Shown one piece after another: positions 19,411 to 43,055 of a stretch of DNA of 64,000 nt. Numbering within the stretch: position 1 is the first letter of the stretch; every line of letters starts with the position of its first letter. Position numbers and translations under genes: made by a program. Source of the stretch: Eledone cirrhosa (lineage: Eukaryota); NCBI GenBank assembly GCA_964016885.1, contig OZ024740.1, positions 93,806,001-93,870,000 of the forward strand, in the 5' to 3' direction. Under the pieces are notes generated by a model, which was given only the letters and a program-made list of their open reading frames with translations, had not been told where the DNA came from and ran no database searches.

Positions 19411-20160
19411 TCTCACTCGATATGTAAATTAGTCTGCTCAGCCGTTAATATGCATAAGGAAAGTATATACTTTCAGACGTTCAATCATCTGGCAGGAAGT
19501 TATACGGTGCTGACGATAGCTAATAAGCTTGAAACTAGTACATCGTTCCTTTGTCAGTGTTGAATAAAAGGGCAACGATGGTTGCTAAACAATGTACGGC
19601 TTAATTCGTGATGTTTGTTTACAAACAAACCGAGCATTACAATAAAAACTCGGTAAATCCATACGCACATATATGTATGTGTGCATGTATGTATATACAT
19701 ACATACTACTGTACGTCTGTATAGATATATTTATGTACGTTTACATGTTTATATTTAAGTAATGGCCGTACTAAGAGTGACAAATGAAATTTCGTTTAAT
19801 TGTTTTCCATTATCGTTTTTGGTGCGCCCGGCCGCTTATCTCACTCGATATGCAAATTAGGCTGATCAGCCGTTAATATGGATGAGGAAAGTATATACTT
19901 TCAGACGTTCCATCATCTGGCAGGAAGGTATGCGGTGCTGAGGATAGCTAATAAACTTGAAACTAGTACATCGTTCCTTTGTCAGTGTTGAACAAAAGGG
20001 CAAAGATGGTCGGTAAATACTGTACGGCTTAATTCGCGATGTTTGTTTACAAACAAACCGAGCATTACAATAAAAGCTCGGTAAGTCCATACGTATATAT
20101 ATGTATGTGTGCATGTATGTATATACATACATACTACTGTACGTCTGTATATATATATGT
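19411..20160 (+). repeat. HHR-containing tandem repeat (retrozyme-like), array 1, ~1.75 units, period 428 nt
   Basis: HHRs at 19505-19545 and 19933-19973. First copy: CGGTG-CTGACGA-TAGCT aata AGCTT-GAAA-CTAG-TA-CATCG. Confidence 0.9.
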
Positions 20161-20167
20161 ATCTACG

Positions 20168-20270
20168 TTGGAGATGCAGGAGATGGCAGCGATAATGAGG
20201 GACAGAGACCGATGGAGAGAACTCGTCCATAGATCTTCGGAATGTTACCCGCCTTAGAGAGCCATAGACA
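20168..20270 (+). mobile_element. Short LINE 3'-end fragment (RTE-like)
   Basis: LEMQEMAAIMRDRDRWRELV resembles the C-terminal DRxxWRxxV motif of RTE ORFs. Confidence 0.5.
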
Positions 20271-20381
20271 CACATATATATATATATATATATATATATA
20301 TATATATGTGTGTGTGTATTTAAAACAATAGAGGTGTAACACACATTAGATCAAACATCGTGAGGCTCTATCTCAAAATTA

Positions 20382-20417
20382 TTTTTGAAAAGCATTCGAA
20401 ATGCACAACCGGTAAAA
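20382..20417 (+). ncRNA. Decayed HHR with U3-A8 core
   Basis: TTT-TTGAAAA-GCAT tcgaa ATGC-ACAA-CCGG-TA-AAA. GAAA is mutated. Related to the 26.6k and 30.7k copies. Confidence 0.55.
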
Positions 20418-20921
20418 CTTAAAACCAAAACTGAATAGTAACCAATGCTATTACTAACTTTTACTTATTCCTAATTAAACTATTTTTCACTGGGAACAAT
20501 TTGTCAGCATTTTCTTTTTCTTTTACCAATATATATATATGTATACGCATATATACACACATACGCATATATATACACACGTACATATACATACATACAC
20601 ATACATAACTATACACACACACATACACACATATACATACTCATGTGCATATACACTTGTACGCGCGCATATACTCTTAGCCACACGTATAGGTACATAT
20701 ATACAAATGTAGGTGTATATATATATATAAAAAAATATATAAATACATTCACACGCATATACATGAGAAAAAATACGTACAACCACATACACACATATAT
20801 ATATATATATATAAAATAAAGACTTATATATAAAACAAATATATATATACATACATACACACATAGGCATATATACACATACATACGCATACACCTACAT
20901 ATATATATATATATATATATA

Positions 20922-38987: not shown

Positions 38988-39089
38988 TATTTTGAAAATG
39001 TTGACTGTGAACAACAATTATAATTGAGTGGCTGCTATTTGCAGTATAGCAATATAAGGTTGCACTTACCAATGAAACGGTCGTAAATA
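38988..39089 (+). ncRNA. Type I HHR, U3-A8 core, 75 nt stem II domain
   Basis: TATT-TTGAAAA-T..(75 nt)..T-GAAA-CGGTCG-TA-AATA. Confidence 0.65.
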
Positions 39090-40569
39090 CCTGGATTAAA
39101 TCCTTCTCTTAATGCTTACCTGTGTTTTCTCTTTTATACTTTATACTCCAAGATTGAACGGAATTCTTACAAACTTGTGGAGTTACCCCTAACCGTGCGT
39201 TGAAACCATCCATGAAACTGGCTTTCTTAACCAAAAACTGGATCACAATAAGCAATTTTTTGCTTCTCTAACTATATATATATATATATATATATATATA
39301 TATATATATATATATATATATATATATATATATATATATATATATTTATATATATATATATATATTAGAATGTTAATAGATAGATAAATATATTTATCTG
39401 TAACATTAGTTGAAGCCTTGTGAACCCATGTTCTATTGGCCTGTTAGCAGCATCATATTTACCAAGGACATATTTATTATGGACACAAACTTTGTTATAA
39501 GGCACCCAAATAATTGTTATAGATGGATGGTGAACAAATCCTTCTTATTTCATCATTGCATTATGTTTGTAATATTAATTTTTTTCTTTACTTCAAATCA
39601 TAATCTTCGAACATGACCGACACAGATCATCAATGATTCCGGAACATTTGTTCAGTTAATCACGCGGTATCAATGAAGTTTAATGTTTTACAAATTATAA
39701 TTTCCAATTCCTCTCTACATAATTCGAATGTGCCTGTATAAATCGAAGTATGCTTTACTTTTCTAATATGAGTTAACATTCAACACACTGCTATGGGTTG
39801 AATAAATTTTATGAGTAAGAAAATTCGTCTCAATTACGACCGTGATATGAACAACCGCCAGATACGCAGATTCGTCAAAACAGAACTCAATTTGCGGGCA
39901 TCTAGGTCAACGGTTTTCACGTTGAATTGGTAGACCTGCATCAATAATTCATATGGTCGTCAAAACTATATGCTAATATCATAACATGTTATATCTGTTT
40001 TTTTTATTGCACATAAAATCGATATACTCCTATTAATAATAGTTGTTTTATTTCATATTTAAACCGGGAATGTAACACTCATGGATGTGCTTATCGATTG
40101 CATCATCTGTAAATATGCAATGCTAATGTGCGATATTATAGATTTATTGTGATTAATACCGAGTTGGACAATCTAACTTGAAATATCGATCTATTACCTA
40201 GTAAAACTAATACTCCCGTCATAAATGCTTAATTAAATTTTCGGGGACATAATATCCCATTAGGCAAGCCATGGGATAAATGAACAGAAAATATCTGCAG
40301 CTCAATGTTACAGAAATATTATGACAATGAATCTTCTTTATAAAAATATATATTACAAATGGTTATTTAAGTTTGTGGAAATGTTTTCAGAATTACGTGG
40401 ATTGGTGTCAATTAGTATATGCACACATACATACAAACACACACACACACAGACATCTGTTTACGCGACTGACTCATTTGACTATTTTGCTATACATATT
40501 ATGTGTATGTTAGAGCGGTTAAAGAGCCAAAATATGACAGAGCCGTTTGGAAACATGAAATCCGTGTCG

Positions 40570-41500
40570 ACATGATAAAATCATTAAATAGAGAATATAG
40601 TATGTGGCTAAATCGTGTTTGGGGAGGGACCAGGATTTCTGGCAAGGCAATCTATGGCTATCAGGAGTGAAATTCTCAGTATTCAAAATTGTAGATCTCT
40701 TTGCTTGCGGCTAAAGGCTTAGCTAAGTTCGAAGCAAAGAGTTGCAGGGATAATCTCGAACCCAAGAGAAAGCTTAGCACACCAAATATTCGCATTTAGG
40801 CAGATCTGGAGAAATTGTGGGAGTATTGCCTAGATTTATATACCTTGAAAAGGCATATGACTGTGGACCTCGTGACCTCTTGTGGAAGATTGTGGAGGAG
40901 TATCGGATGGTCATGTACTTATTTCCATGATGTCTCTATAAGGACGCCCGAGTATATTTATTGGGATAAATGTTGCTAAATTGAAGCCGTTCAATGTAGG
41001 AATCAGACTCCTCCTACTGTGGGTACGGTCAGCTATTCTATAAATTATTTACATGAACAGGTTCAACTAAAGAGCCTGGTTGGGATCAACAAGTTGACTG
41101 GTGGTTGTAAAATTAGTTGTGCGTAAGTTGCAAACGGCATCATGTGAATTAACTAGACAAATAAGCCTACGAAGATAAAACAAAATGGAGGTAGCCGTAA
41201 AAGTCAAACTCGCTAATTTCATGTCGATATTCGTTCGGATACTTACCAATAGTAACGTATCTTGGGTAATGACCGAAAGAATACGATCGCGAAAATAAGC
41301 GGGCGAAATGTGGTTTTCCAAAAGGTATTTGCAGTAATTTTAAATCTTAGAGTGCGTAGTTTGGAGATCAGAGATTCACTACAGAGCAGCTACATATCCG
41401 AATTGAGATACCACAGCTCCGACAATATGGGCATGGGGTTAGAACTTTTCAGGAATAAGTCACTGTTCAGATAATATTATGCAACTGGCTTATCGAGAGA
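40570..41500 (+). mobile_element. Decayed RTE-clade LINE RT fragment
   Basis: FIYLEKAYDCGPRDLLWKIVEEYR matches the FxDLEKAYDxVPR..LW..EYG motif. Confidence 0.65.
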
Positions 41501-41770
41501 TATATAAATTATTCCGTTCATGATACATTCATGATCTTTAACTGAAGTGTAATTAATGAATATTTTACATACATGTACATTTGAGAAAATCTATTACATT
41601 ATGAGTGAAGATGTATATCCAAAAGTGGTAAATGGGTAGAAACTCGGGATACACACGCACACAAACATACATATATATATATAAATATGGATATATATAT
41701 ATATATATATATATATATATATATATATATATATATATATATATATATATATATATATATATATATATAT

Positions 41771-43055
41771 AATAGAATGAAACCAAATTTTATTTCTCAC
41801 TCTTACCAGGGCACTTACTTAATTGAAGTATGTATGTATACAGACGTACAGTAGTATGTATATATATATATACATACATGCACACATATATATATGCACG
41901 TATCGGTTTACCGAACATTTATTATAATGCTTGGTTTGTTTGTTTGTAAACAAACAAACACCCCGAATTAAGCCGTACAGTGTTTAGGCAACCACGTCAC
42001 CTTTTTGTTCAACATTGACACAGGAACGATGTACTAGTTTCAAGCTTATTAGCTATCGTCAGCATCGTATACATTCATGCCAGATGGTTGAACGTGTGAA
42101 AGAATATACTTTCCCTATGCATATTAACGGCTGATCAGCCTAATTTGCATATCGAACGAGTTCAGTCGGCCAGACACATCGAAAACGATAAATGGAATAG
42201 AATGAAACGAAATTTCATTTCTCACTCTTATCTCGGCACTTACTTAAATGTAAGTATGTATGTATGTATGTATGTATACGTACATAATATATGTATACAG
42301 ACGTACATTAGTATATATATATATACATACATGCACACATATATTTATGCACTAGTACAACTAGTACATCGTTCCTGTGTCAGTGTTGAACAAAAAGGTG
42401 ACGTCGTTGTCTAAACACTGTACGGCGTAATTCGGGCTCTTTGTTTCTTTACAAACAAACAAACCGACCATTATAATAAATGTTCGGTAAACCGATACGT
42501 GCATATATATATGTGTGCATGTATGTAAATATATACATGCTACTGTACGTCTGTATACATATATGTATGTACGTATACATACATACTTACATTTAAGTAA
42601 GTGCTCTACTAAGAGTGAGAAATGAAATTTCGTTTCATTTTATTCCATTTATCGTTTTCGGTGTGCCCGGCCGACTGAACTCACTCGATATGCAAATTAG
42701 GCTGCTCAGCCGTTAATTTGCATAAGGAAAGTATATACTTTCAGACGTTCAACCATCTGGCAGGAAGGTATACGATGCTGACGATAGCTAATATGCTTGA
42801 AACTAGTACATCGTTCCTGTGTCAGTGTTGAACAAAAAGGTGACGTGGATGCCTAAACACTGTACGGCGTAATTCGGGTTCTTTGTTTGTTTATAAACAA
42901 ACAAACCGAGCATTATAATAAATGTTCGGTAAACCGATACGTGTATATATATATATATATAGTTGTGTGCATGCATGTATATATATATATATATATATAC
43001 AACTGTACGTCTGTATACATATATGTATGTACGTATACACACATACATACTTACA
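41771..43055. repeat. Retrozyme-like array 4: ~1.3 units (-) joined at 42350 to ~1.6 units (+), period 442 nt
   Basis: Intact HHR at 42027-42067 (-), half HHR at 42360-42371 (+), HHR at 42773-42813 (+). Confidence 0.92.

Follow-up and report, generated by a model that had tools for sequence, protein, structure and literature searches.

How does a non-coding repeat that carries a self-cleaving ribozyme come to be scattered through an animal genome? The window (the whole 64-kb stretch analysed here) raises this question with four insertions of a repeat that has a type I hammerhead in each unit. The preliminary description took it for a retrozyme of a cephalopod, and our results support both the kind and the host: the family belongs to the metazoan non-LTR retrozymes, a kind described in 2020, and its host is an octopod. 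A hemocyanin unit encoded in the genome scores 855 bits against PDB 1JS8 (octopus), 739 against 4YD9_C (squid) and 489 against a gastropod unit, and among named sequences Octopus bimaculoides supplies the top homologue of a PLE protein from the window. We think it is probably a non-autonomous, non-coding retroelement that a Penelope-like element (PLE) copies through its RT-endonuclease protein. For the movement of animal retrozymes there is so far a proposal, in which PLEs are the likely partners and circles the likely templates, and the origin of the inverted arms and one-sided tail of PLEs is called undefined in the literature. An abundant, very young family offers near-binary rules, namely periodic multi-lap arms and, in each inverted pair, one 3' end at each of two fixed sites, A and B; both questions thus become testable with an RNA of ~470 nt and an intact PLE protein from the genome.

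The repeat and its hammerhead

Local alignment finds nine full hammerhead regions and one half region where the preliminary description had put them, with plus-strand cleavage after 19540, 19968, 32026, 32442, 32895, 35632 and 42808, minus-strand cleavage at 35001 and 42032, and the half copy at 42366. These hammerheads are not chance matches, since shuffled windows average 0.33 matches to a relaxed descriptor that the real window matches 15 times, and the genome contains 4,194 exact intact matches to a 35-nt core pattern whose reversed control has 0. The spacings of 428, 416, 453 and 442 nt were reproduced, although the last is measured from the half copy, which lacks a core; window units are thus 416-453 nt apart, with a consensus of 429 nt and 37% GC. 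The unit has no ORF, as had been claimed (with the unit circularised, its longest ATG frame runs antisense and has 53 aa), and so does not encode the RT and GIY-YIG of an autonomous PLE. It contains an internal TA microsatellite and, ~120 nt upstream of the cut, the octamer ATGCAAAT. ARAGORN found no tRNA in the window, nor did we find the tRNA-like head with A and B boxes of a tRNA-derived SINE.

The four arrays stand at their positions, but the third and fourth are head-to-head inverted pairs rather than plain tandems. Insertion 1 (19410..20169, plus strand) is a tandem of ~1.8 units, from unit position 298 to 201, with one fully intact hammerhead (19478..19567, core start 19510, cleavage after 19540, at GUA) and one that keeps its core and has one broken stem II pair (19906..19995, cleavage after 19968); nowhere else in the window could double cleavage release a monomer. 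Insertion 2 (31626..33106, plus) is older, with ~3.4 units at 79-87% identity to the family consensus. Two of its plus-strand hammerheads are decayed (31964..32028, with C3 changed and the 3' arm of stem I partly lost; 32380..32469, with A6 and G8 changed), the third has an intact core and broken stem I and II pairs (32833..32922), and its 3' end is close to site A, with (TA)n beyond it at 33075-33245. In insertion 3, the minus arm (34873..35439) has an expanded internal microsatellite (35301-35421), a decayed minus-strand hammerhead with G8 changed (34974-35063) and a 3' end adjoining (TA)n at 34716-34872, and the plus arm (35440..35913) has a plus-strand hammerhead with an intact core and a damaged palindrome and stems (35570-35659) and ends at site B on (TA)n. 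Insertion 4 joins a minus arm (41772..42352), whose minus-strand hammerhead is fully intact (42005-42094) and whose 3' end is site B on (TA)n at 41667-41771, to a plus arm (42359..43056) that comprises a half hammerhead (42359-42393), a full unit (42367-42808) and a core-intact hammerhead (42746-42835), all on the plus strand, and ends at site A on (TA)n. Between sites A (~42590) and B (~42652) lies a 'tail' of ~60 nt of short hairpins (42575..42655, plus; fold z = -3.11), and we infer that the two sites are internal starts of reverse transcription. All window copies are middle-aged or old.

The full hammerheads are preserved to different degrees: all 11 core nucleotides are kept in six of nine (changes fall in 32026, 32442 and 35001), and core and stems I and II are whole in just two (19540 and 42032). 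The extended hammerhead folds as claimed, with z = -3.15, -2.01 and -1.80 in three copies and +0.65 in one decayed copy, but the extension concerns stem I only, and the geometry for loop I-loop II contacts was overstated, the CAGGAA/TTCCTG helix having drifted in the youngest subfamily, where three of its pairs are altered without compensation. Helix III is of newt type, one A-U pair with the palindrome ACUAGU as its loop, a form expected to cleave as a dimer; when two copies are cofolded, an intermolecular helix III forms. The dimer-type helix, the Penelope-type insertion anatomy and the much younger subfamily go beyond the preliminary description. The Rfam check it proposed gave no hammerhead family at E <= 10 for two of the best copies, nor for the whole window among the 150 of 206 matches listed. 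Predicted circular minimum-energy folds are 60-68% paired with the extended stem I formed (one z-score is inflated by the TA block), and such a self-paired circle would leave the hammerhead fold available.

Is the ribozyme under constraint? Across 85 copies, 91.5% of stem cells pair, stem I has one A-U/G-U/U-G double change, and covariation is thin (2 of 27 pairs). The core was expected to be better conserved than the rest of the unit and is not, at 2.6% versus 3.1% in genomic copies (P = 0.52); neutral decay after insertion predicts just this, so the retrozyme reading is not refuted by it. Propagated alleles are not significantly rarer in the core (2/15 versus 55/189 positions, P = 0.16). Young arms have 1 core mismatch in 1,790 core sites, most of that sample having been picked on part of the core, and an unbiased subset has 1 per 470 sites, as background predicts. 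Between the two subfamily consensuses, 39 of 419 aligned sites differ, with the free position N7 as the only core change, and the ribozyme changes that spread are located at N7, H17, loop II, the bulge or wobble pairs.

Insertion anatomy and a probable Penelope connection

A variant first taken as rare in DNA proved to be a large young subfamily, with 10,106 genomic matches and none in the window. Units of the youngest subfamily measure 456-546 nt (36% GC), slightly over the stated 150-450 bp range for such elements, and the longest ATG ORF of the young unit is 74 aa, antisense. The repeat is dispersed over many chromosomes, mostly with 1-2 hammerheads per arm in the older sample rather than in the long clustered arrays of a satellite, and exact adjacent pairs number 445 genome-wide for the spacing searched. 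Arms are 5'-truncated and lack terminal direct repeats and LTR structure.

The 3' ends are internal, fixed and without poly(A). They fall at two sites ~60 nt apart, together covering ~8% of the unit, in 217 of 243 arms (151/169 in the window-type sample, 66/74 in the young sample), and (TA)n follows in 127/169 arms compared with 309/2,978 background positions. Inverted head-to-head pairs combine one A and one B end in 59 of 64 classifiable cases: 37/42 in the window-type sample (53 pairs; P = 2e-7) and 22/22 in the young one (26 pairs). Arms often meet head to head with 1-7 nt of microhomology, and a single 5'-truncated arm is left where the other is missing. Since the insertions sit inside (TA)n runs, a target-site duplication is unreadable. 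The insertion anatomy of PLEs is all present, with 5' truncation, an inverted 5' copy, a tail at one end and a microsatellite target; in the literature searched we did not find this anatomy described for a retrozyme, though supplements and repeat databases may differ.

A comparator lies in the window outside the repeat, the 3' part of a PLE (20921..22496, minus strand; GIY-YIG ORF 21465-22496; pLTR hammerhead at 21184), which ends on (TA)n at 20921 and has the same two-end anatomy. Its family has an RT with YVDD, a CxxxxCxxC motif, a C-terminal GIY-YIG and open frames of up to 1,261 aa, and its ends fall at cleavage+171 (17) or +229 (18) in 35/35 cases, 33 of them on (TA)n. That this PLE ends as the repeat does suggests Penelope-type priming on both target strands. 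It is a candidate type of mobiliser, and the repeat co-occurs with PLEs in the genome. Comparison with seven window pLTR/hammerhead regions gave no similarity above shuffles and one marginal match in the TA block; in the partner search Pfam returned nothing for 10 of 10 window fragments and a short DNA query no candidates, and at none of the loci screened was a repeat arm joined by a PLE ORF of fitting orientation and fixed position. In vitro, a PLE protein cuts both strands of AT-rich DNA and starts reverse transcription at two internal sites that define the tail (PMC11167929), and an inverted copy with a one-sided tail has been described for PLEs (PMC8557442).

These features suggest a cycle. 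Tandem copies would be transcribed, perhaps from an internal promoter at ATGCAAAT; from structure and the literature, a hammerhead with a 1-bp palindromic helix III would pair with that of the next copy and cut after GUA, incomplete cutting would release RNAs of one, two or three units, and a host ligase, by analogy, would circularise them. A PLE endonuclease would nick both strands of a (TA)n tract, and one 3' end would prime cDNA at site A and the other at site B, ~60 nt downstream, as the end pattern indicates. Reverse transcriptase would run past the cleavage junction, as the arms record, and might circle for up to ~20 laps; the two cDNAs would join head to head, often via microhomology, to give inverted arms, or leave a single 5'-truncated arm if one is missing. 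Inserted copies would then decay neutrally, as the genomic copies do.

Circles, read-through and other routes

What was the template? The cleavage site is passed in 77 of 82 arms, with no pile-up of ends there. A cleaved linear monomer was rejected as template, with 1 stop at unit positions 1-10 against 2.9 expected and 4 within -5..+4 against 2.65 (P = 0.28). An apparent avoidance of stops inside the hammerhead was an artefact of short arms aligned one unit off, and after correction there is neither depletion nor pile-up. We also dismissed as evidence a single contig ending at the cleavage site; the three contig sets (8,294, 105 and 6 contigs) are of unrecorded kind and have no bearing on expression.

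The youngest arrays hold up to 21 near-identical hammerheads per arm. Among young arms, divergence is 0.20% inside a single arm, 0.24% when the arms of one insertion are compared and 1.9% from locus to locus, and in the youngest loci single-lap differences amount to ~0.07% (60 in 83,749 sites). Insertion-specific alleles recur on all laps of both arms (25/25, 6/6 and 5/5, for example). In two arrays variants are periodic, with period 3 in 14 of 15 steps and with period 2 in 16 of 18 steps, the latter on both inverted arms and absent from the other loci among 11 with that unit type; rolling-circle copying of multimeric circles would give 2- and 3-unit periods of this kind. Older copies share rare alleles in excess (11 versus 1.9 and 13 versus 0.8 expected), which fits a circle and a source array alike, and their within- versus between-insertion identity is confounded by age. 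We lean towards reading the youngest arrays as direct DNA records of rolling-circle reverse transcription.

The closest rival retains the PLE machinery and takes as template a linear, uncleaved read-through of a long genomic array, with later DNA duplication and with circles as by-products. Possible source arrays exist, long and homogeneous with 10-21 near-identical units, passage of the cleavage site fits equally well, and an anole PLE in vitro needs no hammerhead cleavage for insertion and uses mainly uncut RNA as its substrate (PMC11167929). Higher-order DNA repeats are present too: a 5-unit repeat at C1:149.82 Mb and one allele that returns six units away, at 2 of the 3 places expected, indicate that DNA-level duplication also acts. 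Repeated 5' truncation, however, should shorten arrays with each round, whereas it is the youngest that are longest (arms average 1,058 versus 430 nt, in samples chosen by different patterns). The period-2 pattern on both inverted arms has no source locus in the assembly. A source-locus test on the 476-nt variant leaves room for read-through multimers because long arrays of it exist; one allele pair in a 4-unit array occurs elsewhere at one shorter locus only, and distinct loci share no 5' flank beyond (TA)n, repeat-internal letters and loci sampled twice, in a comparison of low power. We judge read-through unlikely.

An orphan PLE pseudo-LTR with a dead hammerhead, spreading only by its PLE binding and priming signals and making no circles, would explain a core that diverges at the background rate and a stem I extension that drifted in the youngest subfamily, and Xenopus retrozymes do match PLE pLTRs (bioRxiv 2026.07.22.740005). 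It is very improbable, given that consensuses differing at 39 of 419 sites differ in the core at N7 only, that spreading ribozyme changes keep to the tolerant places listed above, and that no PLE ORF of fitting orientation and fixed position adjoins an arm at the screened loci. Tandem units with an internal microsatellite might also suggest that DNA recombination, a LINE or a Helitron has spread an ordinary satellite or minisatellite; copies on many chromosomes, 113 of 170 arms spanning one junction, and fixed internal 3' ends without poly(A) make this scarcely credible, the end statistics largely refuting it. L1-type twin priming acts on one linear RNA, whereas in 35 of 37 A/B pairs the two arms share at least 50 unit positions.

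Editing and known relatives

Cephalopods are known for heavy RNA editing. Among 14 alleles repeated lap after lap, 8 are A>G and 1 is T>C, and a third and narrower look, at 37 of 53 loci, gives 9 versus 2 (P = 0.033); the older subfamily has no such bias (98 versus 86, P = 0.46), nor has the mixed-age young set (5 versus 6). The flanking bases (3' G in 1/8, 5' G in 2/8) fit the ADAR preference poorly. That some of these alleles are ADAR A-to-I edits written into the germ-line genome is a tentative idea, and rather doubtful is the fuller account in which a Penelope enzyme, primed on both strands of a (TA)n target, performs rolling-circle reverse transcription from two internal sites of one mono-, di- or trimeric circle and ADAR edits are among the lap alleles. 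Should editing lie behind the A>G excess, cephalopods would have a path by which RNA edits become inherited changes in DNA.

Searches on retrozymes, hammerheads and Penelope in octopus and cephalopods found no description of this family, which Dfam, Repbase, paper supplements or Coats 1994 may list. The metazoan non-LTR retrozymes of Acropora, Mytilus and axolotl, for which cleavage and circles were demonstrated (Cervera and de la Pena 2020, PMC7229834), likewise consist of non-coding tandem units a few hundred nt long, each with one type I hammerhead and less than 50% GC; they too co-occur with PLEs, and their predicted circle pairs with itself while the ribozyme fold stays free. Helix III resembles that of axolotl HHR_Amex1, with one pair and a palindromic tetraloop, and the U-U at the base of helix II that of HHR_Amex2 (PMC7229834). 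The octopod repeat differs in its cephalopod host (none in that main text), a unit at or above 150-450 bp, the internal TA microsatellite, and two-site 3' ends, inverted arms and (TA)n targeting, which are not described there; its cleavage and circles are predicted only. With PLEs bearing a C-terminal GIY-YIG (Neptune/Nematis; anole Poseidon PAc) it shares a hammerhead upstream of two RT start sites, AT-rich or (TA)n targets, 5' truncation, an inverted 5' copy and a tail at one end only (PMC11167929, PMC8557442). Unlike them it lacks an ORF and similarity to the window pLTRs and has arms of up to ~20 units, and its tail is ~60 nt against 30-40 nt, or 58 nt in the genome's own PLE.

Vertebrate retrozymes, also proposed to depend on PLE machinery, were read as PLE derivatives (Li, Clavereau, Pollet; bioRxiv 2026.07.22.740005) on the grounds that they co-occur with PLEs and are homologous to pLTRs across 35 genomes, the groups listed including no mollusc; here the link comes from insertion anatomy, pLTR homology not having been found. 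Of 9 predicted dimers of Xenopus retrozymes, just 1 underwent cleavage in vitro (bioRxiv 2026.07.22.740005). The repeats newt satellite 2 and Schistosoma Sm-alpha are likewise tandem type I hammerhead repeats, and the newt ribozyme requires a dimer (PMC7229834). Unlike the schistosome repeat, the octopod unit yielded no tRNA-type Pol III promoter; it has the octamer, and newt satellite 2 has an internal snRNA-type promoter (PMC2220036).

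A type I hammerhead repeat

The repeat lies where the preliminary description had placed it: its 90-nt ribozyme region can be aligned at nine sites in the window, with half a copy at a tenth, and the cleavage-site spacings of 428, 416, 453 and 442 nt are confirmed. Its fold is that of a type I hammerhead, with a 5-bp stem I followed by CUGANGA, a stem II of 4 bp over a U-U, an AAUA loop, then GAAA, and a cleavage triplet of GUA or GUU. All 11 core nucleotides are intact in 6/9 window copies, and the core plus stems I and II are whole in 2/9. A relaxed descriptor returns 15 sites in the window versus 0.33 per shuffled window, of which 6 belong to the repeat family, 7 lie beside fragments of Penelope-like elements (PLEs) and 2 fall in neither group. 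The proposed Rfam comparison gave no hammerhead match, either for two good copies at E <= 10 or, among the matches listed, for the whole window.

Helix III has just one A-U pair, capped by the palindrome ACUAGU; in a two-copy cofold it is predicted to become an intermolecular helix. Hammerheads with such a helix III are reported to be weak cleavers as single copies and efficient ones as dimers (PMC4209133, PMC7229834). The segment 42360-42840, suggested earlier for transcription, contains a single complete ribozyme and would accordingly be expected to cut weakly. Stem I does continue past a 6-nt bulge as claimed, whereas the tertiary contact attributed to this geometry is unproven, since in a second, young subfamily the helix past this bulge has three altered pairs with no compensating change. 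An octamer, ATGCAAAT, stands at unit position 311, ~120 nt before the cut (window 19850, 32324, 35514 and 42690; reverse strand 35112 and 42143), and occurs in both subfamilies, although 82/3,000 shuffles also contain it. Because an snRNA-type promoter is reported for newt satellite 2 (PMC2220036), the octamer is a candidate internal promoter.

Within the 3.0-Gb assembly that contains the window, a 35-mer for the intact core is matched exactly 4,194 times (control 0), and since only 3/9 window copies fit it, the total suggests, as a rough figure, window-type ribozymes on the order of 10,000. The young subfamily, absent from the window, has a consensus 91% identical to the window type (380/419 aligned sites) and a 26-mer with 10,106 matches at <=1 mismatch. 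Is the ribozyme under selection? A core no more conserved than the rest had been proposed among the grounds for rejecting the retrozyme reading; this is what we find among genomic copies (21/800 versus 294/9,525 divergent sites, P = 0.52), but it does not refute that reading, because neutral decay of inserted copies predicts equal divergence. Cores are intact in 55/69 genomic copies, the sole core change between subfamilies is at N7, and 91.5% of stem cells are paired across 85 copies; one stem I pair occurs as A-U, G-U and U-G, with a double change in only 2/27 pairs.

In all features open to testing, the repeat agrees with the metazoan non-LTR retrozymes described in PMC7229834, and it appears to work alike, except that cleavage and circles are here predicted only. 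It is a real feature and a further member of this already known class. Our literature search, with Dfam, Repbase and supplements outside its scope, found no description of the family.

Insertion ends and a candidate PLE partner

Insertion anatomy was read from 170 window-type arms (stretches in one orientation) in 105 loci; 110 had been fetched, of which the locus of the window and four that duplicated others by overlap were dropped. The 5' ends are scattered, whereas 151/169 arms with a readable flank end 3' at one of two fixed positions ~60 nt apart, counted from the cleavage site: site A (203-222, 77 arms) or site B (263-275, 74 arms). (TA)n follows the 3' end in 127/169 arms versus 309/2,978 background positions. 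Head-to-head inverted pairs number 53; both ends could be assigned in 42, of which 37 combine one A end with one B end (P = 2e-7), as does the fourth insertion in the window. The young subfamily behaves alike, with 66/74 ends at A or B and all 22 classifiable pairs, of 26, being A+B. The two arms overlap by 1-7 nt at the junction in 14/26 young pairs (counted without a null); most junctions of the older set, 35/53, instead carry a few unaligned letters. Two unlinked young insertions, L248 and L262, have almost identical inverted junctions (at positions 19 and 407/408), which sit at the base-paired foot of the extended stem I and were probably driven by microhomology.

One PLE family of the window (11993-13130, 20921-22496, 28165-28802) carries pseudo-LTR (pLTR) hammerhead cores at 12254, 21184 and 28453 on the minus strand and 28577 on the plus strand, and includes a GIY-YIG/HTH_animal-like ORF at 21465-22496. 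A first look at the genome gave ~40,000 candidates, several with open frames >1,200 aa (longest 1,261 aa). Their motifs (RT, CxxxxCxxC, C-terminal GIY-YIG) would place the family in the Neptune/Nematis type as PMC8557442 describes it. The best named homologue of a PLE protein from the window is from Octopus bimaculoides (53% identity); on this and on the hemocyanin scores given below, the host is probably an octopod. Copies of the family form inverted pairs on (TA)n with two 3' ends 58 nt apart: across 35 readable 3' ends at 30 loci, these fall 169-171 nt (17) or 227-229 nt (18) after the element's own hammerhead, the query having stopped at +229, so that longer ends would not show, and (TA)n is present at 33/35.

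An anole PLE protein is reported to cut both strands of AT-rich DNA and to begin cDNA at two internal sites, the distance between them being the tail (PMC11167929). By analogy, sites A and B may be reverse transcription start sites, one per target strand. PLEs have been proposed as retrozyme mobilisers (PMC7229834, PMC7761336), and in vertebrates retrozyme-PLE co-occurrence and pLTR homology are reported (bioRxiv 2026.07.22.740005); a word search of the main texts of the two primary papers among these returned no tail, inverted-arm or cephalopod content. Since no sequence similarity of the repeat to the window pLTRs was found, the PLE family is only a candidate partner type. At the left flank of locus L228 (G000:C1:69.578 Mb), a young retrozyme array lies directly in (TA)n at a short PLE 3' end, and here array and PLE copy share a target.

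Templates and periodic arrays

What RNA is copied at insertion? Arms were drawn through a motif that lies 3' of the cut and does not select on the ribozyme (1,062 genomic matches; 98 arms, 95 of them unique). Among the 82 that reach position 10, 77 extend >=10 nt beyond the cut and ends do not accumulate there, which rules out cleaved linear monomers as the main template; that template is a circle or an uncut multimer. In young arrays (65 monomers), the divergence of units is 0.20% inside an arm, 0.24% from one arm to the other and 1.9% from locus to locus; letter-identical units are 19/67 among neighbours versus 78/4,878 pairs across loci, and insertion-specific alleles are often present on every lap (unit) of both arms.

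A variant of 476 nt is matched exactly 93 times, across 11 loci, all of which were fetched, with ribozyme sites from the scan at nine. One locus has a 3-unit period over 18 units (14/15 steps; 0/200,000 permutations), and another a 2-unit period over 20 units (16/18 steps, P = 0.0003) that is also present on its inverted arm. Neither pattern occurs at any other locus of the variant, and therefore the assembly holds no read-through source for them; dimeric and trimeric circles account simply for these periods. Against this reading, long homogeneous arrays could act as linear template sources, and DNA-level duplication also takes place: in L247, a 12-unit window-type array (G000:C1:149.818-149.823 Mb), a 5-unit higher-order repeat points to such duplication or to misassembly, and misassembly may likewise lie behind the periodic arrays (C10:46.19 Mb and C3:306.76 Mb). 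With these insertion rules, and with periodic arrays so young, the model of mobilisation can be put to a direct test.

Among the alleles that recur in copies at the 37 youngest of 53 loci, A>G accounts for 9/23 versus 2/23 for T>C (P = 0.033), whereas single-lap changes are balanced (8 versus 9, of 60); when only alleles that one insertion carries on several of its laps are kept by hand, 8 are A>G versus 1 T>C of 14 (P = 0.018). Candidate A-to-I positions of the young unit are 69, 91, 94, 200, 215, 235, 241 and 388. Editing is a doubtful explanation and a lead only, because two tests on older sets were negative and the sequence context of the A>G alleles is not typical.

Other features of the window and genome

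A second hammerhead group (583 and 52179 on the minus strand, 54998 on the plus strand; also 45232 on the minus strand) has a CCGAAGA core, with C replacing U4, and a palindromic helix III, ACAAUUGU or ACAGCUGU; it adjoins other PLE fragments (36531-38186, 46683-50752, 53888-54836). Large nested inverted repeats of PLE fragments, with arms 90-95% complementary, occupy 13641-17855, which holds RT and GIY-YIG pieces, and 46683-50752. Short near-perfect inverted repeats with (TA)n on their flanks, at 3754-4291 and 33965-34496, are possibly 3' ends of other PLE-mobilised elements. A 188-aa frame at 50888-51454 has no Pfam match and presumably resembles the C-terminal part of an RTE-type LINE.

Elsewhere in the genome there are several hemocyanin gene copies (G000:C1:173.74-173.91 Mb, C26:21.93-22.02 Mb, C27:0.06 Mb), with 39 domain matches in all and at least two copies on C1 having seven functional units each. 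Compared with 1JS8 (octopus), 4YD9_C (squid) and 8TNV (gastropod), one hemocyanin unit scores 855, 739 and 489 bits, respectively.
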